Below, one piece after another: positions 1-36,833 of a DNA stretch of 36,833 bases (position 1 is its first letter; every line of letters starts with the position of its first letter). This DNA comes from a virus (taxonomy: Duplodnaviria; Heunggongvirae; Uroviricota; Caudoviricetes): IMG/VR virus record IMGVR_UViG_2571042372_000004, positions 1-36,833 of that record. One strand, 5' to 3'. Under the pieces are notes generated by a model, which worked only from the letters and a program-made list of their open reading frames with translations, did not search any database and was not told the origin of the DNA. The translations under genes and the position numbers were made by a program.

Positions 1-1215
1 TTATTTTTCAACCTCTGACAGGGGTAAGTAATGAGATGTCTGTAATGTCAAACTCTCTATCTCAAAGGAAATGTTGCTGATATTTTGACCTGCAAATTGC
101 GGATGCCACTCAGCGCCAGGGAATAACATTTCCGCAGAAGTAGCAACTATAGGGTCAATAGCATTAAGATAATGTAACTTATCAGGTGCGCTGTGTAACA
201 GTAACCACTGCAACTCCACTGAAGGATTTGTAAAATGTTCTAATAAATGAAAGTTATTATGTAGTACGCTTAGTAAAAAACTGGTTTCGTATACTTCCGT
301 TACATATTTCCACCCCTGATATTCAGGTGTATTTTCATAAACAATACCCATACCTTCACAATCACTATGTCGAACTGCTTGTGGTGATAATAGTTGCAAA
401 AGAGACAAAACATCGTCCGCATATTTTTTAACTGGATGACGATTTTGCTTACCTTTTATTTGATCAATTTCAAGTGAATCACCAACAACATTGAGAGCAA
501 TAGTAACATGAGGAATATTATTATTATCACGCAAACTGAATAACCGTAATTTATGTTGCTCAATTTGATTTGCATAATACTCACCATAACCACCGGTAAG
601 ATTTTTTCGATCATCAAACTGGCCTACGCAATGTTGCATATGCCATGATTCATAAGCCATTTCACGACGAAGGTTCGAATGACTGGCATCAAACTCAACA
701 ATTTTTCCGTCTGGCACATCAAGTATTGACTTTACAGTATTTTGTTCACTCGGCTGCCACCCTTTCTCGCGTCGTTGAAGCATCTTTTCATGCTCTTCTT
801 CACGCATTCTGAACGCAACGTAGCAGGTTATGCGCTGTAGTTTTGATTCCAGACGGGTACCACATTTCCTGGAAAGAAATTCCACCAACTCCCGTTCTTT
901 GGTTAATATTTGTTGATGATCGGTTTCGATATAATAAAGTGTCGCAGTTGATACTGAGGCAGTATTAAACTTCGATACCAGCCATTCCGGGATTACATCA
1001 TCATTTTTATTAAACAGTGAATATTCTGCAAGCGAGTTAATTTGTTGCACCATTGGAAAGTCACTAATTAGCCATCGATAAAAATGGTTGAGTAACCATT
1101 TTTGGATGGTCTCATTATCCTGGCGAAACAGACTTCTTTGCAAAATTGCTGTTTTTACTTCCGGGGCATTAATTACATCCCTTGCATTATAATTCTGGTG
1201 AATATTTCCAGTCAT
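1..1215 (-). CDS. hypothetical protein, AT-rich accessory gene (possibly PcfJ-like; domain call tentative)
   Basis: Complete 404-aa ORF (ATG at 1213-1215, stop at 1-3). Strongly AT-rich compared with adjacent yegQ. Contains the motif ESWHMQHCVGQF, which I tentatively associate with PcfJ-like proteins. Outside the prophage. Confidence 0.55.
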   Translation of the reverse strand: MTGNIHQNYNARDVINAPEVKTAILQRSLFRQDNETIQKWLLNHFYRWLISDFPMVQQINSLAEYSLFNKNDDVIPEWLVSKFNTASVSTATLYYIETDHQQILTKERELVEFLSRKCGTRLESKLQRITCYVAFRMREEEHEKMLQRREKGWQPSEQNTVKSILDVPDGKIVEFDASHSNLRREMAYESWHMQHCVGQFDDRKNLTGGYGEYYANQIEQHKLRLFSLRDNNNIPHVTIALNVVGDSLEIDQIKGKQNRHPVKKYADDVLSLLQLLSPQAVRHSDCEGMGIVYENTPEYQGWKYVTEVYETSFLLSVLHNNFHLLEHFTNPSVELQWLLLHSAPDKLHYLNAIDPIVATSAEMLFPGAEWHPQFAGQNISNISFEIESLTLQTSHYLPLSEVEK

Positions 1216-1702: not shown

Positions 1703-3064
1703 ATGTTTAAACCGGAACTCCTTTCCCCGGCGGGAACGCTGAAAAATATGCGTTACGCTTTCGCTTATGGCGCAGATGCTGTTTATGCGGGCCAGCCGCG
1801 TTACTCCCTGCGTGTACGCAACAACGAATTCAACCACGAAAATCTTCAGCTCGGCATCAATGAAGCCCACGCGCTGGGGAAAAAGTTTTATGTCGTGGTC
1901 AACATTGCACCGCACAACGCCAAGCTGAAAACCTTTATCCGTGACCTGAAACCGGTGGTGGAAATGGGGCCGGATGCGCTGATTATGTCCGATCCAGGGC
2001 TGATTATGCTGGTGCGTGAACACTTCCCGGAAATGCCAATCCACCTCTCGGTACAGGCTAACGCCGTAAACTGGGCGACGGTGAAATTCTGGCAGCAAAT
2101 GGGTCTGACCCGCGTGATCCTCTCTCGCGAACTGTCACTGGAAGAGATTGAAGAGATCCGCAATCAGGTGCCGGATATGGAGATCGAAATCTTCGTTCAC
2201 GGCGCGCTGTGCATGGCCTACTCCGGTCGCTGCCTGCTCTCTGGCTATATCAACAAGCGCGACCCGAACCAGGGCACCTGCACCAACGCCTGCCGCTGGG
2301 AGTACAATGTCCAGGAAGGGAAAGAAGATGACGTCGGCAACATCGTACACAAGTACGAGCCGATTCCGGTGCAAAATGTTGAGCCGACGCTGGGTATCGG
2401 CGCGCCAACCGACAAAGTGTTTATGATCGAAGAAGCCCAGCGTCCGGGCGAGTATATGACCGCGTTTGAAGATGAGCACGGCACTTACATCATGAACTCG
2501 AAAGATCTGCGCGCCATCGCCCATGTTGAACGCCTGACCAAAATGGGCGTGCATTCGCTGAAAATCGAAGGCCGTACCAAATCTTTCTACTATTGCGCAC
2601 GCACCGCGCAGGTTTACCGTAAAGCTATCGATGACGCCGCTGCGGGCAAACCGTTCGATACCAGCCTGCTGGAAACGCTGGAAGGTCTGGCGCATCGTGG
2701 CTATACCGAAGGTTTCCTGCGTCGTCATACCCACGACGATTATCAGAACTACGAATACGGTTATTCGGTTTCTGACCGCCAGCAGTTTGTTGGTGAGTTT
2801 ACCGGTGAGCGCAAGGGGGAGCTCGCGGCGGTAGCGGTGAAAAATAAATTCTCCGTTGGCGACAGCCTTGAGCTGATGACGCCGCAAGGCAACATTAACT
2901 TTACCCTTGAGCATATGGAAAACGCCAAAGGTGAAGCGATGCCGGTCGCACCAGGCGATGGTTATACTGTGTGGCTCCCGGTGCCGCAGGATCTTGAGCT
3001 AAATTACGCGCTGCTGATGCGTAATTTCTCCGGGGAAACCACGCGTAACCCCCACGGTAAGTGA
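1703..3064 (+). CDS. yegQ: peptidase U32 family protein YegQ (TrhP, tRNA hydroxylation-associated)
   Basis: 453-aa ORF with recognisable YegQ sequence (MFKPELLSPAGTLKNMRYAFAYGADAVYAGQPRYSLR...; Cys-rich CMAYSGRC...C..NAC segment). GC-rich host-type composition. ATG preceded by a GAGAG-type RBS. Confidence 0.93.
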   Translation: MFKPELLSPAGTLKNMRYAFAYGADAVYAGQPRYSLRVRNNEFNHENLQLGINEAHALGKKFYVVVNIAPHNAKLKTFIRDLKPVVEMGPDALIMSDPGLIMLVREHFPEMPIHLSVQANAVNWATVKFWQQMGLTRVILSRELSLEEIEEIRNQVPDMEIEIFVHGALCMAYSGRCLLSGYINKRDPNQGTCTNACRWEYNVQEGKEDDVGNIVHKYEPIPVQNVEPTLGIGAPTDKVFMIEEAQRPGEYMTAFEDEHGTYIMNSKDLRAIAHVERLTKMGVHSLKIEGRTKSFYYCARTAQVYRKAIDDAAAGKPFDTSLLETLEGLAHRGYTEGFLRRHTHDDYQNYEYGYSVSDRQQFVGEFTGERKGELAAVAVKNKFSVGDSLELMTPQGNINFTLEHMENAKGEAMPVAPGDGYTVWLPVPQDLELNYALLMRNFSGETTRNPHGK

Positions 3065-3095
3065 TTAATTTCGATTATTTTTCCCGGATGGGAAA

Positions 3096-3117
3096 TTCTT
3101 AGAAACCGATCACATAC
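3096..3117 (+). promoter_or_regulatory. putative CRP site of the cyaR promoter (degenerate left half-site)
   Basis: Sequence tTtctTAGAaaccgaTCACAta is centred about 42 bp upstream of the inferred CyaR 5' end. Right half-site TCACA is perfect; left half TTAGA matches TGTGA at 3 of 5. CyaR is known to be Crp-activated. Confidence 0.35.
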
Positions 3118-3148
3118 AGCTGCATTTATTAAGGTTATCATCCGTTTC

Positions 3149-3235
3149 GCTGAAAAACATAACCCATAAAATGCTAGCTGTACCAGGAACCACCTCCTTA
3201 GCCTGTGTAATCTCCCTTACACGGGCTTATTTTTT
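3149..3235 (+). ncRNA. cyaR: CyaR (RyeE) small regulatory RNA
   Basis: Sequence GCTGAAAAACATAACCCATAAAATGCTAGCTGTACCAGGAACCACCTCCTTAGCCTGTGTAATCTCCCTTACACGGGCTTATTTTTT matches CyaR as I remember it, including the CCACCTCCTTA seed-like stretch and the terminal hairpin CCCTTACACGGG plus U-run. Lies directly downstream of yegQ as in E. coli. Exact ends approximate. Confidence 0.88.
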
Positions 3236-3236
3236 A
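3209..3236. repeat. attL core: 28-bp direct repeat aatctcccttacacgggcttatttttta
   Basis: Identical 28-mer occurs again at 36161..36188. It overlaps the CyaR terminator. Its reverse complement contains AAAAAATAAGCCCGTGTAAGGGAGATT, which I recall as the phage P2 att core. Confidence 0.85.
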
Positions 3237-3300
3237 CGCGTAATACAATGAAATAAAAGGATTTATTTCTGGTCACGTCCACACATTGACCACATCGACA

Positions 3301-3323
3301 AAAAAGCCCCTCGACTGAGGGGC
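3301..3323 (-). terminator. rho-independent terminator downstream of ogr
   Basis: On the minus strand: hairpin GCCCCTC-AGTC-GAGGGGC (plus-strand 3306..3323) followed by TTTTT (plus-strand AAAAA 3301..3305), just downstream of the ogr stop. Confidence 0.6.
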
Positions 3324-3336
3324 TTCCTGTTTGTAA

Positions 3337-3555
3337 TTACATCCACATAATTTGCTGCCCTGACGGCAACGGGTGCGGCCTTACGGCGTGGACTTCTCCC
3401 GGCTTCACGATGTATCGCTGTACCGACTCATAAGTGATGAACGTGGCGCTGCAATTCACGTTCTGGCACTGGTGATAACGCTCTTTTGTCGTGTCAGTGA
3501 TATAGCGACTTGTACGCGCATGTGCGGCATGCTGGCATAAAGGACAATGAAACAT
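3337..3555 (-). CDS. ogr: Ogr, zinc-finger activator of P2 late transcription
   Basis: 72-aa product MFHCPLCQHAAHARTSRYITDTTKERYHQCQNVNCSATF... with CxxC...CxxxxC zinc-finger pattern. Start chosen at the internal ATG (3553-3555) preceded by an AAGAGG RBS; the ORF track extends 21 codons further upstream. Confidence 0.88.
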   Translation of the reverse strand: MFHCPLCQHAAHARTSRYITDTTKERYHQCQNVNCSATFITYESVQRYIVKPGEVHAVRPHPLPSGQQIMWM

Positions 3556-3636
3556 CGCGAGCACCTCTTCCGGTTTTGTTGATGGTGCCATTTTAGTTAA
3601 TTTATCCTTATAAAACAAACAGATAAAATAAAAACA

Positions 3637-4800
3637 TCACCCATCATCTTCTGTTTCGTACTCCACATCAGAAAGCCTGACCTCAAGCTCTAAGGACGTC
3701 GTGAAGCCGCTATTATTCAGAAAATGTGTCACCTTAGTGATTGTCCAGTCCTGCTCGTCTATGACGCGCTTAAAGCCTGATACTTTGACCGGCGTTTCCG
3801 TGTAAATATCTGCCCGACCGGTAGCCAGGCTGATGGAGAACTCCGCAACGCCCCGTTGCAGTTTATCCCACTTCGCCTGAGCGGCGCGCATGGCCTGCGC
3901 TTTTGTGGCATATACCGTAGTCAGGGCAAAAACATTGTCAGCCTCACCAGCCATGTATTCACCTTCGCGCGCTTCCGGTACTTTTGGCGCTTTCTTCTGC
4001 GTGACTGGTTTCGCTTTCGGGTGCTCCAGTGCGCGCAGGTGTTTCTCTTTCTTTTTGCGTTTCAGTTTTACCTTCTGCTTTTGCGGCTTCGGGTCTTTGG
4101 TGTGTAACCACTTTGCCGTTACGCCGGTATAGGCTCCACGGTCAGCAATCGCAAAATGATGGCGGTCGCCGTCGCTGCGGGTTATGGTGACCTGCGGGAT
4201 TTTTTTACCGCTGGCCGTCACCCCCTGCCCCGCTTTGAGAAACAACAGTTTTCCCATTTTTACCGACACCTCACCGCCGTTGCGTTCTGCAAGACGGGTC
4301 AGGAATTTCGCATCAGACTCCTGCGACTGGTCGATGTGCGGGATTTTAATTCCGGCCAGTGACGGCGCGACACTGGCTTCCAGCTTGTTACGGGAGGCTA
4401 TCGCCTCAACAATCGCACCGAGCGTGGTGTCATGCCATGAGCCTTCACGGCGGGAATTGAGCGTCCCGCGAAAATCTGCACTCCGGGCGCGGATGGTGAC
4501 CACATCCGGTGCGCCCCGGTGTTCAACCTCATCAACGGTAAATTTCCCTTTGCATACCAGGGCAAAACCTTTCCAGCCGATATACACCGTCAGAACAGCA
4601 CCACGAACCGGCAGTTCGACCTGCCCGTCGGCATCGTTCAGTTCAATATCAAGCTGGTCAGCCTCAAAGCCCCGGTTATCCGTCAGGGTCATGCTCATCA
4701 GACGGTCGCTGATATTGCCGGTAATATCCCTGCTGTCGAGCATCAGCATGTAATCCGGCGTCAGCGTACTGCCTGCATCAAATGTCAGCGCATCCAGCAT
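3637..4800 (-). CDS. D: tail protein gpD
   Basis: 387-aa ORF matching P2 gpD length and position (between ogr and U). Confidence 0.88.
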   Translation of the reverse strand: MLDALTFDAGSTLTPDYMLMLDSRDITGNISDRLMSMTLTDNRGFEADQLDIELNDADGQVELPVRGAVLTVYIGWKGFALVCKGKFTVDEVEHRGAPDVVTIRARSADFRGTLNSRREGSWHDTTLGAIVEAIASRNKLEASVAPSLAGIKIPHIDQSQESDAKFLTRLAERNGGEVSVKMGKLLFLKAGQGVTASGKKIPQVTITRSDGDRHHFAIADRGAYTGVTAKWLHTKDPKPQKQKVKLKRKKKEKHLRALEHPKAKPVTQKKAPKVPEAREGEYMAGEADNVFALTTVYATKAQAMRAAQAKWDKLQRGVAEFSISLATGRADIYTETPVKVSGFKRVIDEQDWTITKVTHFLNNSGFTTSLELEVRLSDVEYETEDDG

Positions 4801-10198: not shown

Positions 10199-10891
10199 TT
10201 AGTTATCTTTTTGCCTTTCTTTATCCCATTTCTTTACAGTGGTCTGATACCACTCTTCACGTGCTCGTTGTTCCTCTGCTCTGTCACTTGAATTATAGTT
10301 GTCTGTTTTAATTTTTTTGCTTCCCTGGGAAATCGGCCTCCAGTCTTCTCTAATCTTTTTCATCTGCTCAGCTATCTGTGTCATTGGACTCCTTGCACCT
10401 AAGTAGCTAACCCCCTCGAAAGAAGCCATATCATAAGAATACTCATTCCGCTCTCTTTCAGTTGAGCCCGGCTGTTTAGACCAGCTAATACTAACAGAAT
10501 AAACTTGATCTTTAATCTGGTCATACTTACAAAGACTGCTGTTGAGGGAATGGCCGTTTTTCAATACGCTAACCTTGCTAAATGGTATACCTTTATTTTT
10601 TCTATGTTCTGCATTAACCAGTGGGGGATTAAATCCGACTTCAATATCATAGGCTGGGGCATTTCCGGTATTAGCAATATTGATATCAAAATAAAAAGCA
10701 GCCCAAGAATTTGGTTCAAGAGTCACAACGACATGAGGTTGAACTGATGCGTCAACCATCCTTTTTGTCTCGTCTGCTAATAGCCTTGTTACTCTCCACA
10801 AGAAAAATGTAGCAACTGCTGTTAGCAATGCTGCCAAAGCGGAGATAAGTGTACTTACTGTGTTTATATGCTCTGCGATAAATTCGATCAT
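10199..10891 (-). CDS. membrane-anchored hypothetical protein (cargo gene at the P2 Z/fun position)
   Basis: 230-aa ORF, AT-rich. One predicted N-terminal transmembrane helix (VSTLISALAALLTAVATFFLW) followed by basic residues (RVTRLLADETKR), suggesting a cytoplasmic body. Highly charged C-terminal tail. No family recognised. Confidence 0.7.
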   Translation of the reverse strand: MIEFIAEHINTVSTLISALAALLTAVATFFLWRVTRLLADETKRMVDASVQPHVVVTLEPNSWAAFYFDINIANTGNAPAYDIEVGFNPPLVNAEHRKNKGIPFSKVSVLKNGHSLNSSLCKYDQIKDQVYSVSISWSKQPGSTERERNEYSYDMASFEGVSYLGARSPMTQIAEQMKKIREDWRPISQGSKKIKTDNYNSSDRAEEQRAREEWYQTTVKKWDKERQKDN

Positions 10892-11379
10892 GAGTTGTCC
10901 TTGGGGGCGTACTAATTGTTTTCAATACTAAAATAGCGCCGGGCTTGAAAAATTGCACACTTATGGTTCGATTTACCTCAACAGTTAAGGCTTCTACTTC
11001 CCCCATGCACCTCACCCAGCCCAAGACGGTATGAGGTCTGACAAAGAACTTCCTGACACTTGAAAACGAGGCAACGGCTAGGGTTTCTCGTAGGGCAAGG
11101 ATTGAATACGAAGCCTGTATATTGCTCCGCAAACGCTGCTGAGGGCAGTTTAAATGTTGGGCGTTTATGTAGCCTTTCACTCACCAGCATGAGTTCAATG
11201 TCTGTGAGTTACCGACAACAATATAAAGAGGGTGGCATCATATATCCAAGCTAGAGTCAAATCCTCCAACTGGTTTTATGATCAGTGTCAATTGTTTGAT
11301 TATTGAACGTTTACGAAGCAGCACGGGAGCCATATAACTAATGGGCAGGTATAAGCCTGTATCACGAGGAATCAGTAAA

Positions 11380-11559
11380 ATGGCTGATGATAAGACCAAA
11401 ATCGGTACCCCTGACAATGATTTAATAAGTATCAAACAGGATTACGAGAGACGTGATTGGGCTGAAAAGTTTGGAGTTAGCGAGGCCAAACTTGTTCAAG
11501 CCGTACAGGCTGTAGGTCATTCGGCTAAGAAAGTACAGGCATGGCTTAAAGACCATTAA
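11380..11559 (+). CDS. small DUF3606-like protein
   Basis: Start set at ATG 11380 with GAGGA RBS 9 nt upstream (the ORF track begins at 11341). 59-aa product contains DWAEKFGVSEAKLVQAVQAVGHSAKKVQAWL, which resembles the DUF3606 signature as I recall it. AT-rich. Confidence 0.6.
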   Translation: MADDKTKIGTPDNDLISIKQDYERRDWAEKFGVSEAKLVQAVQAVGHSAKKVQAWLKDH

Positions 11560-11565
11560 TATATG

Positions 11566-11589
11566 AGCGCCTTTCTAGGCGCTTTTTTC
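11566..11589 (+). terminator. rho-independent terminator after the DUF3606-like gene
   Basis: Hairpin AGCGCC-tttcta-GGCGCT followed by TTTTTT, 7 nt after the stop codon. Confidence 0.6.
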
Positions 11590-11611
11590 TTTGTCCTTTG
11601 GGAGATGATTT

Positions 11612-11890
11612 ATGGCTAATAATTTATTTATTACTTACGACCTCATTAAAACGAAAGATTATGCGGCTGTGTATGATGCAATTAAATCTTTAGGAAATTG
11701 GGCTTTAACAACTGAATCGAACTGGTATGTTAACTGTAGTTACTCTGCCGAGGATGCAGCCAAAATTGTGAGGGCGGTCATGGATAGTGATGATAAGCTT
11801 ATTGTTGTAGACGCAACCAATAACTCAGCTTATTGGTACAATCTCTCAGATGAAGTTAGTAACCAAATTCTGACTGAGTGGAACAAGTAA
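11612..11890 (+). CDS. hypothetical protein (92 aa), cargo gene at the Z/fun position
   Basis: 92-aa ORF, AT-rich, with GGGAGATGA-type RBS upstream. No recognisable family. Followed by a strong hairpin. Confidence 0.6.
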   Translation: MANNLFITYDLIKTKDYAAVYDAIKSLGNWALTTESNWYVNCSYSAEDAAKIVRAVMDSDDKLIVVDATNNSAYWYNLSDEVSNQILTEWNK

Positions 11891-11892
11891 TT

Positions 11893-11915
11893 AAAGGGGG
11901 TGGACAGCCCCCTTT
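11893..11915 (+). terminator. stem-loop or putative terminator after the 92-aa gene
   Basis: AAAGGGGG-tggacag-CCCCCTTT perfect 8-bp stem, 2 nt after the stop codon. The U-run is weak, so this may be a bidirectional or processing hairpin. Confidence 0.4.
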
Positions 11916-12110
11916 AATTCAGAAACTATCATGATTGAAACATTAAATATACTGGGTTAATTCTTTCATCCTTGCTCCCTTGCTATATGTCCTGAAAGCG
12001 TCCTTTTTAGCCTTCTGCTCAGTATATCCGGTAATGGCACAGAGCGGACTGCCAGATTAGGCTTTACTCTGTGCCATAGATATGTAAGCTCACACCAGAG
12101 TTCATACAAC

Positions 12111-12638
12111 TTATTGCGGCATTTCCGGCCATTCAGGATTTGCAGGATCCACACGACTGACCAGAACGCTGTAGCGTTCCCATGCCTCCAGTCGACTGCG
12201 CTCCTCATCTGTTGCCATATTCAGCCTGACAGCGCGCTCCAGTGGCAAAATCACGGATTCGGCTTCGGAAAGCAAAGTTGCCTTTTGTGATTCTGCCAGT
12301 TGCTGCTGTTCGTCTGCCGTATAAATCCGCTTAATCACTGCACCATCCTTAAACATCCATTTACCTGAGTCATCAGCACGCCGGTTGGCAGTAATATCAG
12401 GAACCTCAACAACGCTAAAACCTTCAGGATTAAGCGTTGAAGCATCTCTGGTGATAGCGACAATAATATTATTTTCATCGTAAACAATCTTTATTGTGTC
12501 TGGCTGAAAGTTCTTCACTTCCTCATACCAGTTTTTTCCGTCCTCAGAGTAAAGCCAGATAACTCCGTGTTTCTTTGTTAACTCATACTGTTCCAGTGTT
12601 TTAGCATTACCCGCTTTTATGTTCTTTAAGTGCATCAT
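12111..12638 (-). CDS. G: tail fibre assembly protein gpG
   Basis: 175-aa ORF immediately downstream of H; P2 G size and synteny. Confidence 0.85.
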
Positions 12639-12639
12639 A

Positions 12640-14814
12640 TTAAACGCTCGCTACATTATACCAGGTGCCATTTATATACTTTTGGACGGGTCTGTAATAA
12701 ACACCCGCTATATTATCGGCAGAGTTGGAACCTGTATCCTGAACATTAATACCAGACAATACATGACCTGATGGGCACTGGAAATTCCATGTTTGCCAGT
12801 TGTTCACTCCATAATATTGCTGTGAACCAAGTCGAACATCTTTCACATATCTGGAATCAAAATTGCCATAGTTGCCGGGAATAACTTGCGAACCACAAAG
12901 CCAGTTACCGTTATTATCCATGTATGCCTGACCATCGGTGCCATTGGCTGTCCTTGAGTTATTAATCATGTAGATGCCAAATTGCTTATTTCCCAGACCG
13001 CCAATCATAAATTTGCGGTCGGCATGGTCCTGACGGAGCAAAGCCTGAGCACCATCAGTGGATACCGCATTACGTCCAAAAATAACATTCTGGTCACGCA
13101 TATGAATCCACATGCCTGTGCTGCTGTTAATTGCAAGGCGGTTTGCGTACACCCATGCGTTAGTTGTTATATCTCCTGTAACATCCAGAGCGTGCCCCAT
13201 AGTTATGCGACCAGTTCTGAGATTCAACGAAAAGGGGCGTAGTGGCCCGATATCACCATTTTCCCCCTCATTCTCTCGTGTGGGGATAATATGCAGGCAT
13301 TCTTCAGAACGGCGAAAAATAGCACCAAAGGATGAATTAAAGATTCTCAGTGCATTGACTGTCGATATTTTTACTTCACTGCTGAAAAGGGCTTTAACAA
13401 GGACAGACAAAGCATCCCATTTAAGATTCATCAGGTCTTTTGTTGTGGTGCCCTGACGGCTTCTCCATTTGAAATATTCATTGCCGTTGTCGCCTGTTTC
13501 AAACCACATGTATGAATCAGTGTCACCATCGGCATCATTTTTAAATCCAATCTTCGCCCAGTCAGTATTTCGAATCCAGGCAAGGATTGAGTCGTTTTCA
13601 AAAGTAAGTCCACCGGACAAGGTATCGCCATTTTTTTGCACGGCGTTCCCGGCTCGGTTTACCGTTTCCTGTAAACCGAGATATTCGATAACGGCGGCAA
13701 CGGTCGATTTAGCCAGAATATCCCGCCCGACTTTTGTCAGGGTCGCCAGGCTGGCAACATCATTCCCCGTAAAATACGGAAACCTGTCTGCCGCAGTAGC
13801 AAGCCCCGCCAGCGCCGTCAAAGTGGCATCTTTCGGTTGCTTACCCGCAAGCGCATTAGTCATGGTGGTAGCAAAATTCGGGTCATTGCCCAGCGCCGCC
13901 GCCAGCTCGTTCAGCGTATTCAGTGCGTCAGGCGACGAGTCTACAAGGGCGGCAATCGCGGCCATAACGAAAGCCGTGTTTGCGATCTGAGTATTATTCG
14001 TTCCCTGTCGCGCAGTTGGCGTCGTTGGCGTTCCGGTCAGTGCAGGGCTGTTTAATGGCGCTTTCTTGTTCGTTTCATCCATTACCGTCTTAACGGCTTT
14101 TGGTGTTGCGGCGAGCGTTTCAGACATGCTGTTGGTCGCACTACTTAGCTGGACAAGACCTTTTCGCGCTGTGGTAGCGTCCTGTGCGGTATATTTCCCG
14201 TTAGCAAGGTCATATGCGGCCTTAACCGCTTTCGGCGTTGCGGCCAGTGTTTCAGACGTGCTGTTGGTCGCATTGCTTAACTGAGTAAAACCTTTTGCGG
14301 TCAGCGAGGCGTCCGGGTGACGTCGTGACTGTTCATGCTCTGCAATTTTGTCATCAACGTAATCCTGCGTCGCCATCACCGTTGTGGTGTCAATGGTCAG
14401 CTCCACTGAGGCCACACTGCTGACGATGATGACCATGCGGCAGGTCTGCGAACGCCCTGAGCCTTCGGCAAGGGTAGGTTTATAACTTTCGGCCATGTTC
14501 GCCACGGCAATTAACGTTCCCGCATCATCGTACAGGCCAAGCTCTCGCATCCAGAAACCGCCCACCTCCGGCGGAATAACCAGCTCTGCGATAATATAAT
14601 TACTGTTTCGTTTGTCCTGGCTGATTTTGTTCAGCGCATGTCGCCAGACTTCGTGGATAAGCCCGGTCTGTCCGGCATCCGGGACAGGCAATTTACCACC
14701 GCCATCCCCGACGGCCATCGTGGTAATGTTGACCTTCCGCCCTCCCGGTGCGGTTGCCGCTGCCAGCTTTGCTGCACCGGCAGTGGTGATAACGGTTTTG
14801 AATTTTGTGCTCAT
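12640..14814 (-). CDS. H: tail fibre protein gpH
   Basis: 724-aa ORF with a conserved N-terminal region and internal repeats ([16 protein letters not shown] twice). Lies between I and G. Confidence 0.9.
14089..14330. repeat. imperfect ~132-bp tandem duplication inside the tail fibre gene H
   Basis: cttaacggcttttggtgttgcggcgagcgtttcagacatgctgttggtcgc... at 14089 recurs as cttaaccgctttcggcgttgcggccagtgtttcagacgtgctgttggtcgc... at 14221. In the protein this is a 44-aa repeat. Confidence 0.7.
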
Positions 14815-23415: not shown

Positions 23416-24270
23416 TCAGCAGTTCGTCATCAGGGCGTCACCGCCACCACCGGTGGCCTTGCTGCGGCGCTGCTGGGTCAGACTTTCGGTGTGGTCGAGA
23501 CTGTTTTTCAGGCGGGTGAATGCCTGGCTGGTTTCATCCGCCCTGTCAGTCACCTCCTGCTTAAGTGCGGAAAAGGCGGTTTCCATCTCAGAGAGGCGCT
23601 GCTCAGTGGCGCTCAGTTTTTCCTGCACATGTTCAGCAACAGCGGTCACCGCTTCATGCACGTCATTCAGACGGGCGTCATCGCTGGCCTGTTTGCGGCC
23701 AAAAATGGATTTCACCTTTTCGGTCAGGGCGGTGAACACGGTTTCAGGCAGGTCTTCAAATTCCAGCTCAACAGGCGTTGCCACTGAAATCAGGTTTTCA
23801 GGGCTTAATTTGAAGCGGTTCAGGGGGTTGTGTTTTGCCGTGCGGCAGAATTCCAGGTATTCCGTGCCGAGGCTTGCCGGGTCATCGGTGACGGCCAGAC
23901 CCACCAGATAACATTTGCCGGTGTTGGCAAAGTTCGGCTGAATTTCCATTGAGGTGTAGACCTTCTGCGCGGCCTTGTTCATCGCGATAAGGTCATCGGT
24001 CGGGGTGATTTTCGCAAACAGCGCCCATTTGCCTTTCAGCGCCGAATCATCGTCAATCTTTTCGGCCTTCAGTTCGGCCACATCGCCATAACGCTTAAAA
24101 ATACCGTCAGGCAGGATGCCGCGCAGATGTTCCAGGTTAATGCGGCAACCATAGACTCGCGGGTCAAAGGTTTCGGCCATTTCCTGAATATCCTGCGCAC
24201 TGATGACACGCCCGTCACAGGTGTCACCCTCAACGCCGATACGAAAGAATTTTGAGACTTTTTTTGCCAT
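23416..24270 (-). CDS. O: capsid scaffolding protein gpO
   Basis: Start set at the internal ATG (MAKKVSKFFRIG...), 284 aa; P2 gpO size and synteny. Confidence 0.85.
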   Translation of the reverse strand: MAKKVSKFFRIGVEGDTCDGRVISAQDIQEMAETFDPRVYGCRINLEHLRGILPDGIFKRYGDVAELKAEKIDDDSALKGKWALFAKITPTDDLIAMNKAAQKVYTSMEIQPNFANTGKCYLVGLAVTDDPASLGTEYLEFCRTAKHNPLNRFKLSPENLISVATPVELEFEDLPETVFTALTEKVKSIFGRKQASDDARLNDVHEAVTAVAEHVQEKLSATEQRLSEMETAFSALKQEVTDRADETSQAFTRLKNSLDHTESLTQQRRSKATGGGGDALMTNC

Positions 24271-24443
24271 TGTCAGGAGTCCTGAATAGTGATTAGAGGA
24301 GTCACATGTCGGCATCAGTTTCCCGACGATGCGCATCCTCCGCCATCAGTCCCGGATGGCTTATCACTGACACAACAGCACCTTAGCGAATCGCGGGGCG
24401 CGACTCAGTAGCCTTGCCGTGTATTCATCACGGCGAGGTATTC

Positions 24444-27767: not shown

Positions 27768-29987
27768 ATGGAACTTAAATTAAAGAATATAACCAGCTAT
27801 AAGAAAGATAGCTTCACGACTCTTAATCTCTCAAAAAAAATTAATATACTTTATGGTCACAACGGTTGTGGAAAATCAACCATATCTAATTATTTCTATA
27901 ATCCAAATAACACGGACTACAAAGAATGCGAATGTCCTTTCATAGATACTTTTCGCCTATTGGTTTATAATACTAAGTTTGTTGAGGATAATTTTTATAA
28001 TGCAAAAGAGCAAAAAGGAGTATTCACTTTAAGTAAGGAAAATGCTGACATTGAAAAAGAATTGTTGGAAAAAGAAGCTATAAGACAAGACCTACTTACA
28101 AAATACAAAGATAAAAAAAACGTTATTGAGCGTTTAATTAAAGATAAAAACAATAAAGAAAATGAATATATTGATTTAATATGGAATAAAGCAGAACCTT
28201 TTAGATCATCTGACTTAAAGAACTTGATGAAAGGTCAGTTAGGAAGCAAGAGATCATTTTATGAGCAAGTTAAAAAAGCCCCTCAAACCACTGACGTTAA
28301 CATCGAGTCACTTGCTCAAGAATATAGTATTCTTTTAAAGAACAAAGATAAATTCACTGCATCAATTACACCTTTAGAAAAATATATCATTTCAGAAAAA
28401 GATAAAGAATCTTTATCCACTCCGATTATAGACTCAAGTAATAGCTATTTGTCAGAAACAATTAAACAACTTCAAAACCTTGACTGGGTGAAAAAAGGGA
28501 AGGAATTATATTTAAATGGCACATGTTGCCCATTCTGCCAAGAAGACACTATTAAAGACAAATTTTTAGAAGCAATTGAATCTATCTTTGATGATAGCTA
28601 CTCCAAGAAAGTTGACCAAATACGCATTATCAGATCGTCTTATGAATCCGCTACCATAGATAATTTAAGAAAAATAAAACAAGAGATTTCATCTTGTGAA
28701 TTAATCACCTCAAAAGAAAAAGATATAACATCATCTCATATAGCGTTATTAGAGGAAATAGCAAACAAAAACTTAAAATTGATGTTAGATAAAATCAATA
28801 ACCCATCTATATCTATTATTTTGGAATCCAATAGCGACCTTGAAGCAAAGGTAGTTGATAATATAGCAGAGTACAACAATAGAATTAAAGAAATAAATAT
28901 TAAAGTCAAACAATTTAAGGATAGTGAAAAGTCTATACGTTACAAAATATGGGGAGCAATAAGAGAATTATGCAACGCTGAGTTTGAAGCTTTCTCAAAA
29001 TATGAGAATGACTATAAAATCATTTATGAACAATATCAACTTGAATTAAATACCATAAAAGAACAAGGAGATAACAATAGCAAAAAGATCAAAGAGCTAC
29101 GCGATCAAATATCTAACATTGATGCAACCATAGATTCTATAAATCAACGTCTAAAATTATTAGGAATTTATGGTTTTAGCATAAAAAAACACACTGAGAG
29201 CAATGATAAATATATTATATCACGTTCTGAAAACACAACAGATAAAGATGTATACAGATCTCTTAGCGAGGGTGAAAAAACTTTAATTACCTTTCTCTAC
29301 TTTCTGGAATGCTGTAAAGGTAAGACAGATAAGAATGATACGGATATGCGAGATGTATTTATCGTTATTGATGATCCAATATCCAGCCTCTCTCAAAATT
29401 ATGTGTACGATATTGCTTCAATAATTCACCATGAAATAATCAACAATAACAAAGCAGTAAAGAAAACATTAATACTCACACATAACCTTTATTTCTTTCA
29501 TGAACTTATCAAATTAGCTCCTAGAAGCAAAGAAGATAGAACATTCAAGCGTGATTATTATCTTGGACGAGTAACAAAAAATGAATATAGCATAATTACA
29601 GAAATAGAGAAAAAGAGCATTCAGAATGAATACCAGTCCCTATGGCAAGTATTAAAAGATGCGAAGGATGGAAGGGTAAATAAAGTTATAATACCTAACA
29701 TCATGAGAAATATACTGGAATACTACTTCGCATTTGTTCATAGAACGGATGCATTACAGACAGAGTTAAATAAACTTGCTAGCGATGATAAGAATAATGA
29801 TTTTAGAGCATTTTATAGATACATTAATAGAGGTTCCCATTCAGATGCAGTTAATATCACAGACATGGGAGATATATCTCCAGAGAAATATATGGAGCAA
29901 CTAAAAACCATTTTTCGTATGACTGGTGATGAAAAACATTATTTGAAAATGATGGACGAAGAGGAAGAGAAAACCGTTACCGCTTAG
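27768..29987 (+). CDS. ABC/Rad50-like ATPase with coiled-coil CxxC insert and C-terminal putative nuclease domain (RloC/PrrC-like); defence candidate at the tin/old position
   Basis: 739-aa ORF, extremely AT-rich, GAGG RBS. Walker A GHNGCGKST; ABC signature LSEGEK; Walker B DVFIVIDDP; H-loop-like LILTHNLYF. A long K/E-rich predicted coiled coil between Walker A and signature carries CPFC (zinc-hook-like). C-terminal segment has R-x3-E (RNILE) plus downstream His residues, reminiscent of the PrrC/RloC anticodon-nuclease triad. Confidence 0.85.
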   Translation: MELKLKNITSYKKDSFTTLNLSKKINILYGHNGCGKSTISNYFYNPNNTDYKECECPFIDTFRLLVYNTKFVEDNFYNAKEQKGVFTLSKENADIEKELLEKEAIRQDLLTKYKDKKNVIERLIKDKNNKENEYIDLIWNKAEPFRSSDLKNLMKGQLGSKRSFYEQVKKAPQTTDVNIESLAQEYSILLKNKDKFTASITPLEKYIISEKDKESLSTPIIDSSNSYLSETIKQLQNLDWVKKGKELYLNGTCCPFCQEDTIKDKFLEAIESIFDDSYSKKVDQIRIIRSSYESATIDNLRKIKQEISSCELITSKEKDITSSHIALLEEIANKNLKLMLDKINNPSISIILESNSDLEAKVVDNIAEYNNRIKEINIKVKQFKDSEKSIRYKIWGAIRELCNAEFEAFSKYENDYKIIYEQYQLELNTIKEQGDNNSKKIKELRDQISNIDATIDSINQRLKLLGIYGFSIKKHTESNDKYIISRSENTTDKDVYRSLSEGEKTLITFLYFLECCKGKTDKNDTDMRDVFIVIDDPISSLSQNYVYDIASIIHHEIINNNKAVKKTLILTHNLYFFHELIKLAPRSKEDRTFKRDYYLGRVTKNEYSIITEIEKKSIQNEYQSLWQVLKDAKDGRVNKVIIPNIMRNILEYYFAFVHRTDALQTELNKLASDDKNNDFRAFYRYINRGSHSDAVNITDMGDISPEKYMEQLKTIFRMTGDEKHYLKMMDEEEEKTVTA

Positions 29988-34078: not shown

Positions 34079-34269
34079 TTCCAGACCCTCCGGCTTTTCA
34101 GAAAGGTCAGAGCCTTTTTTAACGGACTCTGTTTTTTGGTGCGGATAATGATTCCCTTACGCCCCTTACCGTGGGTGATGGTGAAGTCAATCGCCCTGGG
34201 GCTTTCGTTACGCAATAACTGAGCAATACAACGAGGCTCATTCATACGGTTCTCCTTAACGTGGTTCAC
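34075..34269 (-). CDS. small phage protein (P2 orf78 position)
   Basis: 64-aa ORF between cox and B, overlapping both by a few nt; basic. Confidence 0.5.
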   Translation of the reverse strand: MNHVKENRMNEPRCIAQLLRNESPRAIDFTITHGKGRKGIIIRTKKQSPLKKALTFLKSRRVWK

Positions 34270-34531
34270 CGAGACCTAACCACATCAACCAGCCGTCACG
34301 AATCTCTTTAGGACGGCTTTCATAAGCCAGTTTTAGTCCGTTATTCCATGCCGGAAGGTATACCCAATATTCACCAGCACGCCCCGATACTGACTGAGGG
34401 TCAGTAATCTCAATAACTGGTAATTTCCCTTTCTCAATCATGCCCCTTACAGCTCTTGGAGTTTTACCAATGAGTTTTGCAAACTCCTGATAAGGCACGG
34501 CATCAGTCACGCTTACAAGCTGTCTATTCAT
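34256..34531 (-). CDS. cox: Cox (excisionase and transcriptional regulator)
   Basis: 91-aa ORF ...VTDAVPYQEFAKLIGKTPRAVRGMIEKGKLPVIEITDPQSVSGRAGEYWVYLPAWNNGLKLAYESRPKEIRDGWLMWLGLGEPR, matching P2 Cox as I remember it. Divergent from C. Confidence 0.9.
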   Translation of the reverse strand: MNRQLVSVTDAVPYQEFAKLIGKTPRAVRGMIEKGKLPVIEITDPQSVSGRAGEYWVYLPAWNNGLKLAYESRPKEIRDGWLMWLGLGEPR

Positions 34532-35067: not shown

Positions 35068-36081
35068 ATGGCAATCAAAAAACTCGATGATGGTCGATAT
35101 GAAGTGGACATCCGCCCTACTGGACGTAACGGAAAACGCATCCGTAGGAAGTTTGATAAGAAAAGCGAAGCTGTCGCTTTCGAAAAATACACGTTGTACA
35201 ACCACCACAATAAAGAATGGCTATCAAAACCAACAGACAAACGACGTCTGTCGGAACTGACACAGATCTGGTGGGATTTAAAGGGTAAACACGAAGAGCA
35301 TGGGAAATCTAATCTTGGAAAAATTGAAATCTTCACAAAAATAACGAATGACCCATGCGCATTTCAAATCACGAAATCCCTTATCAGCCAGTACTGCGCC
35401 ACCCGAAGAAGTCAGGGTATTAAACCTTCGAGTATCAATCGTGATTTAACATGTATTAGCGGCATGTTTACAGCCCTGATTGAAGCGGAGTTATTCTTTG
35501 GTGAGCACCCTATCAGAGGGACAAAGAGGCTTAAGGAGGAAAAACCAGAAACAGGCTATCTCACACAGGAAGAAATTGCCTTACTGCTTGCAGCACTTGA
35601 CGGCGACAATAAAAAGATTGCGATTCTTTGCCTGAGTACAGGAGCACGTTGGGGAGAAGCAGCTCGTTTGAAAGCAGAAAATATCATCCATAACCGCGTA
35701 ACGTTTGTTAAAACGAAAACAAACAAACCACGCACCGTCCCGATCTCAGAGGCTGTTGCCAAAATGATCGCGGATAACAAACGAGGTTTTTTATTCCCTG
35801 ATGCTGATTACCCTCGCTTCAGACGAACAATGAAAGCAATAAAACCGGATTTGCCAACGGGGCAAGCCACACATGCACTAAGGCACAGCTTTGCCACTCA
35901 TTTCATGATTAATGGAGGAAGTATTATCACACTACAACGGATACTAGGTCACACGCGGATTGAGCAAACTATGGTTTACGCTCATTTTGCGCCAGAGTAC
36001 CTTCAGGACGCCATTTCTCTTAATCCGCTAAGAGGTGGTACTGAAGCCGAGAGTGTCCACACAGTGTCCACAGTAGAGTAA
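35068..36081 (+). CDS. int: tyrosine integrase (P2 Int family)
   Basis: 337-aa ORF with the tyrosine-recombinase C-terminal motif region (...HALRHSFATHFMINGGSIITLQRILGHTRIEQTMVYAHF...). Lies adjacent to the attR core. Confidence 0.95.
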   Translation: MAIKKLDDGRYEVDIRPTGRNGKRIRRKFDKKSEAVAFEKYTLYNHHNKEWLSKPTDKRRLSELTQIWWDLKGKHEEHGKSNLGKIEIFTKITNDPCAFQITKSLISQYCATRRSQGIKPSSINRDLTCISGMFTALIEAELFFGEHPIRGTKRLKEEKPETGYLTQEEIALLLAALDGDNKKIAILCLSTGARWGEAARLKAENIIHNRVTFVKTKTNKPRTVPISEAVAKMIADNKRGFLFPDADYPRFRRTMKAIKPDLPTGQATHALRHSFATHFMINGGSIITLQRILGHTRIEQTMVYAHFAPEYLQDAISLNPLRGGTEAESVHTVSTVE

Positions 36082-36160
36082 CGTTTAAGGGCTTTCAGTG
36101 GTAATTTATGCCGCTCAAACCCGCATTGTACCGTTGAAAGCCCCTACTGGTGACACCCTA

Positions 36161-36188
36161 AATCTCCCTTACACGGGCTTATTTTTTA
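36161..36188. repeat. attR core: 28-bp direct repeat aatctcccttacacgggcttatttttta
   Basis: Identical to 3209..3236; 80 bp downstream of the int stop. Confidence 0.85.
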
Positions 36189-36515
36189 TGCATAAGCCCT
36201 ATCCCTGGTCACCGTCTTCCATTGACCACATCGATAGAATCCTCCTTCATAGCACGATGCTTTTCACTTATCGACATCGTGCTCGCACAGGTTCCGGTTA
36301 CGCACAGCCAGAACGCGCATGTTTGACGCTTACCAAAAAATGAACCTAAAGCATTGGAACATTTTTGACATCATTTTCTGATGGCTGCATAAAATAAAAA
36401 TTCTGCTTTAGTTTCATCTATCTGTTTGTCATTATTACTCACATTCAATAATGGTGTTGAAGAATATCCCATCACAGATAAAATAAATATGTGCATGGTA
36501 GTCTTGAATCTATTC

Positions 36516-36833
36516 TCACTCTCCACATTTGAATGTCAGACGAGCGACGCCATGTAATCCTGCACCTTCTGTCTTCAGGTCAACTATCTGCATTTTTTTG
36601 CCCTGAGTAACACAGAAATGAACTGCATCATTTTTTACTATATTTTCTGCACCAGATATTCTACCCCTGGCTAAAGAAGCTTCGGCTTCGGTGTAGTATT
36701 GGTTATCGAGTTTACGCTGAATATTACTTTTATATGCAAGACCAAATTTACCGATACTTGTCTCATCATTATGTACAGCACACCCAGACATAAGAAAAAC
36801 ACTAATTAATGATATAGCAGCTATCTTTTTCAT
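36516..36833 (-). CDS. yegR: lipoprotein YegR
   Basis: 105-aa ORF MKKIAAISLISVFLMSGCAVHN... with lipoprotein signal (LMSGC lipobox). Start codon is at the window edge. Host flank. Confidence 0.85.
   Translation of the reverse strand: MKKIAAISLISVFLMSGCAVHNDETSIGKFGLAYKSNIQRKLDNQYYTEAEASLARGRISGAENIVKNDAVHFCVTQGKKMQIVDLKTEGAGLHGVARLTFKCGE

Follow-up and report, generated by a model that had tools for sequence, protein, structure and literature searches.

A P2-type prophage integrated at the terminator of the small RNA gene cyaR, with the gene intact

How can a prophage lie in the terminator of a regulatory small RNA gene while the gene itself remains whole? The question is raised by a viral record of 36,833 nucleotides (IMG/VR IMGVR_UViG_2571042372_000004; this whole stretch is referred to here as the window), in which a P2-type element begins directly at the end of cyaR (ryeE), the gene for the small RNA CyaR. 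We examined the gene, the two junctions between host and phage, the phage itself, and the corresponding locus in other genomes. The answer, of which we are very nearly certain, is that a complete P2-type phage integrated through its attP core at the identical 3' end of cyaR, and that the exchange rebuilt the gene exactly.

The use of cyaR as a target of P2 has already been published, and the arrangement as such is known. Archer et al. (2011; PMC3032704) give "cyaR RNA" as the place where P2-type elements are inserted in three E. coli strains, W (Wphi2), K-12 (ogr-D') and B (P2*B), and Bobay et al. (2013; PMC3603311) refer to E. coli ryeE as a previously known phage target, citing Wassarman et al. 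(2001). To go by the published listing, Wphi2 and P2*B share the insertion target and the phage type with the prophage described here and differ in strain and cargo. The integrase (Int) of P2 is a heterobivalent tyrosine recombinase that binds both core and arm sites, and integrases of the P2 type mostly use sites other than tRNA genes (PMC3448106). CyaR of K-12 and Salmonella is expressed from a CRP-dependent promoter in a cAMP-CRP-dependent manner, and its regulation of targets depends on Hfq (PMC3333887).

The small RNA gene is intact at its junction with the prophage. It occupies positions 3149-3235 on the plus strand, and all 87 of its nucleotides are identical to the annotated cyaR of K-12. 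The Rfam model RF00112 (CyaR/RyeE) matches 3147-3232 (+) over model positions 1-85 of 85, untruncated, with 100.7 bits (E 3.6e-19) against a gathering score of 47, and it is the sole RNA family that Rfam finds across the window. A previous sequence-only reading of this DNA had held CyaR to be intact at the left junction, and the full-length match and the identity to K-12 bear this out; the span that it gave the feature, 3149-3236, has the right location, except that the RNA ends at 3235 and position 3236 is the last base of the repeat described below. The promoter region (3093-3148, +) is identical to that of K-12, and in the 120 nt upstream of the gene there is a single mismatch to K-12, at 3092. 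Host genes enclose the locus on both sides: yegQ/trhP lies upstream (1703-3064, +), carries the Pfam domain Peptidase_U32 together with its C-terminal domain and is annotated in matching E. coli genomes, and yegR, also annotated in matching genomes, lies on the far side of the prophage (36516-36833, -). Upstream of yegQ, a 404-aa ORF at 1-1215 (-) corresponds to a PcfJ domain-containing protein in a matching empty-site genome, and K-12 has yegP at this place.

Both ends of the element are marked by one 28-nt sequence, AATCTCCCTTACACGGGCTTATTTTTTA, which is present in two exact copies at 3209-3236 and 36161-36188, with flanking mismatches immediately on both sides. Exact 28-mer pairs are expected by chance at about 1e-8 in 36.8 kb. 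The 27-nt attP feature of P2 (AF063097, 24356-24382) is found without a difference at 3209-3235 and at 36161-36187. In P2 nomenclature, the cyaR junction bears the name attR (POB') and the int junction the name attL (BOP'); the core at attL is an orphan copy of the CyaR 3' end. The exact repeat, the match to P2 attP and the empty site considered below all agree with the sequence-only reading that a prophage lies in the cyaR terminator with a 28-bp att core.

How much of the terminator the core contains can be read from the structure of the hairpin. The rho-independent terminator of CyaR (3200-3235, +) was delimited by a terminator scan, by folding and by the structure line of the Rfam model; it has an 11-bp stem (3200-3210 with 3217-3227), a loop at 3211-3216 and the tail UAUUUUUU. 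The core, which starts at 3209, extends from 2 nt of the 5' arm through the loop and the 3' arm to the U tract, and nine of the eleven bases of the 5' arm are host-only. That the core comprises the last 27 nt of CyaR and the U tract, as the sequence-only reading had it, is thus correct, but of the terminator hairpin, which it had also assigned to the core, only the 3' half is included. On folding, the 42-nt frame that ends at the cyaR core reaches -15.9 kcal/mol (z -6.1), and the equivalent 42 nt at the int junction reach only -3.5 kcal/mol (z +0.8), values by which a terminator formed by the orphan core was ruled out.

A four-way alignment of the two window junctions, the empty site and the attP of P2 follows the scheme BOB' x POP' -> BOP' + POB'. 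The left junction is composed of the left host flank, the core and the ogr side of P2 attP, and the right junction of the int side of P2 attP, the core and the right host flank. On the ogr side lie a region matching the IHF site of P2 attP (3234-3267, mapped from AF063097 24324-24357, with 5 mismatches to P2) and the arm-type Int binding site of the P arm (3271-3298, an exact match to "Int P arm" at AF063097 24293-24320). On the int side lie the arm-type Int binding site of the P' arm (36047-36073, an exact match to AF063097 24470-24496) and the Cox-binding region of attP (36071-36144, an exact match to AF063097 24399-24472). The attP rebuilt from both junctions is identical to that of P2 at 256 of 263 positions, and five of the seven differences fall in the IHF-site region. 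The tyrosine integrase encoded by int (35068-36081, +; Pfam Int_N and Phage_integrase) is identical to P2 Int at 336 of 337 residues. The prophage thus shares its 27-nt core, arm sites and Cox sites with P2 as integrated at the primary E. coli site, and its Int is 99.7% identical, in keeping with the proposal of the sequence-only reading that this is an integration of the P2 kind. The cyaR site is presumably locI, the preferred site of P2; locI is reportedly described as such by Barreiro and Haggard-Ljungquist in 1992.

The unoccupied locus was examined with a query of 1,182 nt, made up of the left flank, one core and the right flank, against 5,426 complete E. coli genomes. This sequence is contiguous at 100% identity in four of the genomes and at 99.9% in many more, and the empty-site genomes annotate yegQ/trhP and then yegR, with nothing in between. 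Because the empty site is contiguous in other genomes, the duplicated 28-mer is exactly the insertion boundary; an alignment of this kind is the check that the sequence-only reading had itself proposed. Occupancy was counted with probes at a threshold of at least 80% of the probe. A 120-nt probe centred on the empty junction is contiguous in 4,208 of the 5,426 genomes, Nissle 1917 among them, and this number replaces a count of 4,565 unoccupied genomes obtained with the 1,182-nt query, which was too high because the search joins pieces up to ~1.1 kb apart and so includes K-12-type remnants of 0.6 kb. By the same threshold, the junction yegQ-cyaR-core-ogr is present in 1,127 genomes and the junction int-core-yegR in 65.

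Between the two cores lies a P2-type body (Peduovirus; 3237-36160), defined by nucleotide identity to P2-like phages and by ORF colinearity; the element measures 32,952 bp with one core copy counted. Its late region (3237-28000) is 97.8% identical to phage R18C over 95% of its length and 96.8% identical to P2 over 82%; across R18C, P2 and Wphi the identity is ~97% with 82-95% covered. The early region is 96-98% identical to P2-like phages over 55-73% of the query. The order of the ORFs matches that of P2 (ogr-D-U-T-E-FII-FI ... H-G ... capsid O-N-M-L, P-Q, A-B-cox-C-int), and the ORF list contains P2-sized frames for all structural, lysis, replication and control genes, all of which look intact. 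Among the control genes are ogr (3337-3555, -), which encodes the late-gene activator as a 72-aa protein (Pfam Ogr_Delta, 1.1e-21) and is convergent with cyaR; cox (34256-34531, -), for the excisionase and repressor of Pc (Pfam Phage_Cox, 1.7e-42); and, by Pfam, a helix-turn-helix repressor-like ORF at the position of C. As far as its sequence tells, then, the prophage is a complete P2-type temperate phage.

It differs from P2 in its accessory cargo. The interval between the portal gene Q and the replication gene A, which in P2 is the old/tin defence hotspot (described in PMC13586616), holds a gene for a 739-aa protein at 27768-29987 (+). This protein matches Pfam AAA_13 (2e-102) and the PADLOC candidate defence family PDC-S06 (5e-253), with a weaker PrrC-like match at the C-terminus (3e-14, PADLOC), and probably represents an anticodon-nuclease-like or other ATPase defence gene in place of old/tin. 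The ~2 kb from the tail sheath gene FI to the tail fibre gene G (10199-12208), the Z/fun accessory hotspot of P2, likewise hold different genes here, namely ORFs of 230, 142, 92 and 80 aa, and these four were without a match in Pfam or PADLOC. Within the ORF of the tail-fibre gene H (12640-14814), two 76-nt direct repeats (14089-14296) are 83% identical and 132 nt apart.

On the phage side of the cyaR junction, a further hairpin follows. It is the rho-independent terminator of the ogr transcript and the F operon (3303-3326, -), annotated in P2 at 24265-24288 and identical to it at 23 of 24 positions; its stems are 3304-3312 and 3317-3325, and it folds at -21.7 kcal/mol. On the minus strand the stem is followed by UUUUUUG; the plus-strand tail is just CCUGUUUG, a weak T tract. 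The sequence-only reading had noted this hairpin at 3301-3323 and had tied it to readthrough from cyaR into ogr. The hairpin is real, but it is the minus-strand terminator of ogr and the F operon, and since ogr lies on the minus strand and converges on cyaR, readthrough from cyaR would run antisense to ogr and not into it.

These features suggest how the gene could be used as a target and yet be kept. Int and IHF would have carried out site-specific recombination between the attP core and the 27-28 bp of identical sequence with which cyaR ends, within the interval yegQ-cyaR-yegR. In the phage attP, loop, 3' stem arm and U tract of the CyaR terminator are copied exactly; since attP repeats the last 27 nt of cyaR, the junction on the ogr side (attR) regenerates the gene base for base. 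At attR, the promoter, the body of the RNA and nine of the eleven 5'-arm bases come from the host, and what remains comes from the shared core. The displaced host 27-mer would end up at attL, beside int, as an orphan 28-mer predicted to be unable to fold into a terminator. CyaR transcription would end at its own rebuilt terminator, and about 70 bp further on the terminator of ogr and the F operon faces the opposite way, such that the two units would converge without overlap. The strand exchange would have fallen somewhere within the identical core sequence.

Comparison with K-12 connects this account to a strain in which the small RNA has been studied. It was in K-12 that CyaR was defined, and the window agrees with K-12 at every base from 3093 to 3332, a stretch that runs from the cyaR promoter through cyaR and the junction to the IHF site, the P-arm site and the terminator of ogr. 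In the annotation of K-12 MG1655, the cryptic prophage PR-X (ogrK, yegZ) directly follows cyaR; both P2 and PR-X occupy the same host interval, yegQ-cyaR-yegR, as the prophage here. K-12 matches the window at 97.8% from 3035 to 3849 and then jumps to 36170 onward, a segment that consists of the distal 19 nt of the second core and the same right flank. PR-X has kept only ogr and the 3' end of D, whereas the prophage in the window is complete, and the ogr-D' remnant of K-12 is thus a deletion derivative of the arrangement seen here, with ~3850-36169 lost. A 169-nt AT-rich stretch at 36342-36510, located between the host flank next to the second core and yegR in the window and in the empty-site genomes, is also absent from K-12, where the alignment jumps from 36341 to 36511.

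The remnant in K-12 bears on whether the element in the window might itself be defective or domesticated, its junctions being frozen scars like ogr-D' from which excision no longer takes place. Most E. coli genomes with the cyaR-ogr junction are without its int counterpart (1,127 against 65), so that decay is common at this site; K-12 is a deletion derivative of exactly this layout; and the IHF-site region differs from that of P2 at five positions. The same five differences, or nearly the same, are however present in K-12, in E. ruysiae and in another E. coli record, which suggests an allelic variant rather than decay. In addition, the element has the full P2 length of 32,952 bp and P2-sized ORFs for all gene classes, its Int is identical to that of P2 at 336 of 337 residues, cox is intact, and no difference from P2 is found in the core, in either arm site or in the Cox sites, so that a defective remnant is in our estimation unlikely. 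A much smaller chance still is given to the view that a pre-formed lysogenic segment was brought in by transduction or homologous recombination, with the flanking genes or the P-arm-like host flank treated below as possible points of exchange, rather than by an Int event in this lineage. The right host flank is indeed ~75-87% similar to the phage P arm, and near-identical junctions in other strains mean that the whole block could move horizontally. Yet at each junction the change between host and phage sequence coincides exactly with the edge of the 28-nt core, and the arm region is without mosaic structure, which is the signature of site-specific recombination; an inherited lysogenic segment would, moreover, leave the nature of the structure unchanged. 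From integration at the core as the preferred account, we infer that Int catalysed the recombination in this lineage and that the prophage would still be able to excise.

An intact sequence could still be accompanied by altered function, if after integration CyaR transcripts ran on into phage DNA, if there were antisense interference with ogr, or if the CyaR 3' end were formed differently. Downstream context can affect the efficiency of a terminator, the sequence from 3237 on is that of the phage, and the T tract of the second hairpin is weak on the plus strand. The CyaR terminator with its U tract is nevertheless unchanged, and K-12, where CyaR was established as an RNA of 87 nt, is identical over 3093-3332, including the 96 nt of phage-derived sequence downstream. 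A functional change to CyaR therefore seems highly improbable. CyaR would be made and terminated normally in the lysogen, and the identity to K-12 is the strongest available argument for this.

Other phages are known to use the ends of small RNA genes in a comparable way. In 186-type and Fels-2/SopEPhi phages, which use tRNA and tmRNA sites, and at sdsR/ryeB in Salmonella, attP likewise duplicates the 3' end of a small-RNA gene and the gene survives; as here, the core at the tRNA/tmRNA and sdsR/ryeB sites overlaps a hairpin (PMC3448106, PMC3603311, PMC3333887). The target here is the terminator of an Hfq-type small RNA, in contrast to the tRNA-like fold of the tRNA and tmRNA sites. The locus can serve as a textbook case in which a temperate phage targets the terminator of a regulatory small RNA and brings a replacement 3' end, such that lysogeny spares the host gene. 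For annotation, the element can be delimited to the single base, as 3237-36160 with one copy of the core added, cyaR should be recorded as intact, and the second 28-mer should not be taken for a functional small RNA fragment.

The host flank beyond the second core carries a trace of what may be an older occupancy. Positions 36189-36240 are homologous to the IHF/P-arm region of P2, as found by repeat analysis, alignment and blastn. The right flank and the phage IHF/P-arm region are 75% identical over 40 nt as members of one repeat family (D3), blastn gives 87% over 31 nt between the flank and the P-arm region (E 3.5e-5), and in the alignment the two are colinear with one 16-nt gap. Unoccupied sites of E. 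coli and Shigella have this flank as well, and Escherichia sp. MOD1-EC7003 (~560-660, -, of locus L024) has a longer and less decayed arm, a full-length intermediate, that keeps bases of the IHF region missing from E. coli. That this flank represents a decayed P2-type arm is well supported by these comparisons, and the common "empty" site of E. coli is probably the worn-down attR of a much older P2-type occupant; the fossil P arm is in this sense a small evolutionary footnote on repeated use and decay at the locus. Similarity to the P arm was not found in the cyaR flanks of Kluyvera, nor in the host flank of the P2-type prophage at cyaR of E. ruysiae, from which it follows that the relic is not needed for integration. 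An Ogr-like pseudogene in the right flank (minus-strand "LCVTGTCASTMSISEK", resembling the second zinc-finger half of Ogr) was considered and rejected, its best tblastn match having E = 19; tblastn of Ogr against 36189-36520 returned nothing, and the P-arm similarity at the DNA level alone remains.

Two inverted repeats were also seen in this flank. One is a perfect 9-bp repeat, AGCACGATG ... CATCGTGCT, at 36251-36259 and 36275-36283 in the host flank between the core and yegR, with a 15-nt spacer and without an adjacent T run. The other, an 8-bp repeat (GGGCTTAT / ATAAGCCC, 36175-36182 / 36192-36199), spans the boundary of core and host at the int junction and in the empty site, and its fold of -10.5 kcal/mol (z -1.7) is not significant.

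The distribution of the core beyond E. coli was surveyed by exact match to the 27-mer, with one genome per species. It was found at 21 loci in Escherichia, Shigella, eleven Kluyvera lineages and two records labelled Enterobacter hormaechei, and each of these loci represents a CyaR-like 3' end or else belongs to a P2-type prophage as its int junction. In Kluyvera intermedia and in one record labelled E. coli, cyaR is followed by a P2-type arm that has diverged, which implies that relatives of P2 use the same target there. Among the 27-mer loci, the 5' arm of the terminator stem varies (GCCUGUGU, GCCCGUGU, GCCCGCGU) and the 3' arm is constant. The variable pair is U.G in E. coli, C-G in most Kluyvera and a C.A mismatch in K. 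sichuanensis, in which (locus L011, ~2083-2130, -) the 5' arm GCCCGCGU faces the unchanged 3' arm ACACGGGC. One might take the empty attB to be a fossil attR and suppose, further, that P2-like phages keep the 3' half of the CyaR terminator invariant while the 5' arm drifts; this combined proposal we consider unlikely. The homogenisation that it would involve, in which each integration swaps the phage 27-mer into cyaR and so holds the 3' half constant across Escherichia, Shigella, Kluyvera and some Enterobacter records, is a weak idea: the loci were selected by an exact match to the 27-mer, which by itself makes the 3' arm invariant, and constraint is not shown by it. Three of the records (L004, L015 and L005) are at odds with their labels: CyaR in the two Enterobacter hormaechei records is identical to that of E. 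coli, and in the E. coli record ECDA1023 CyaR resembles that of Kluyvera and a diverged P2-type arm comes after it. Mislabelling or horizontal transfer may account for these records.
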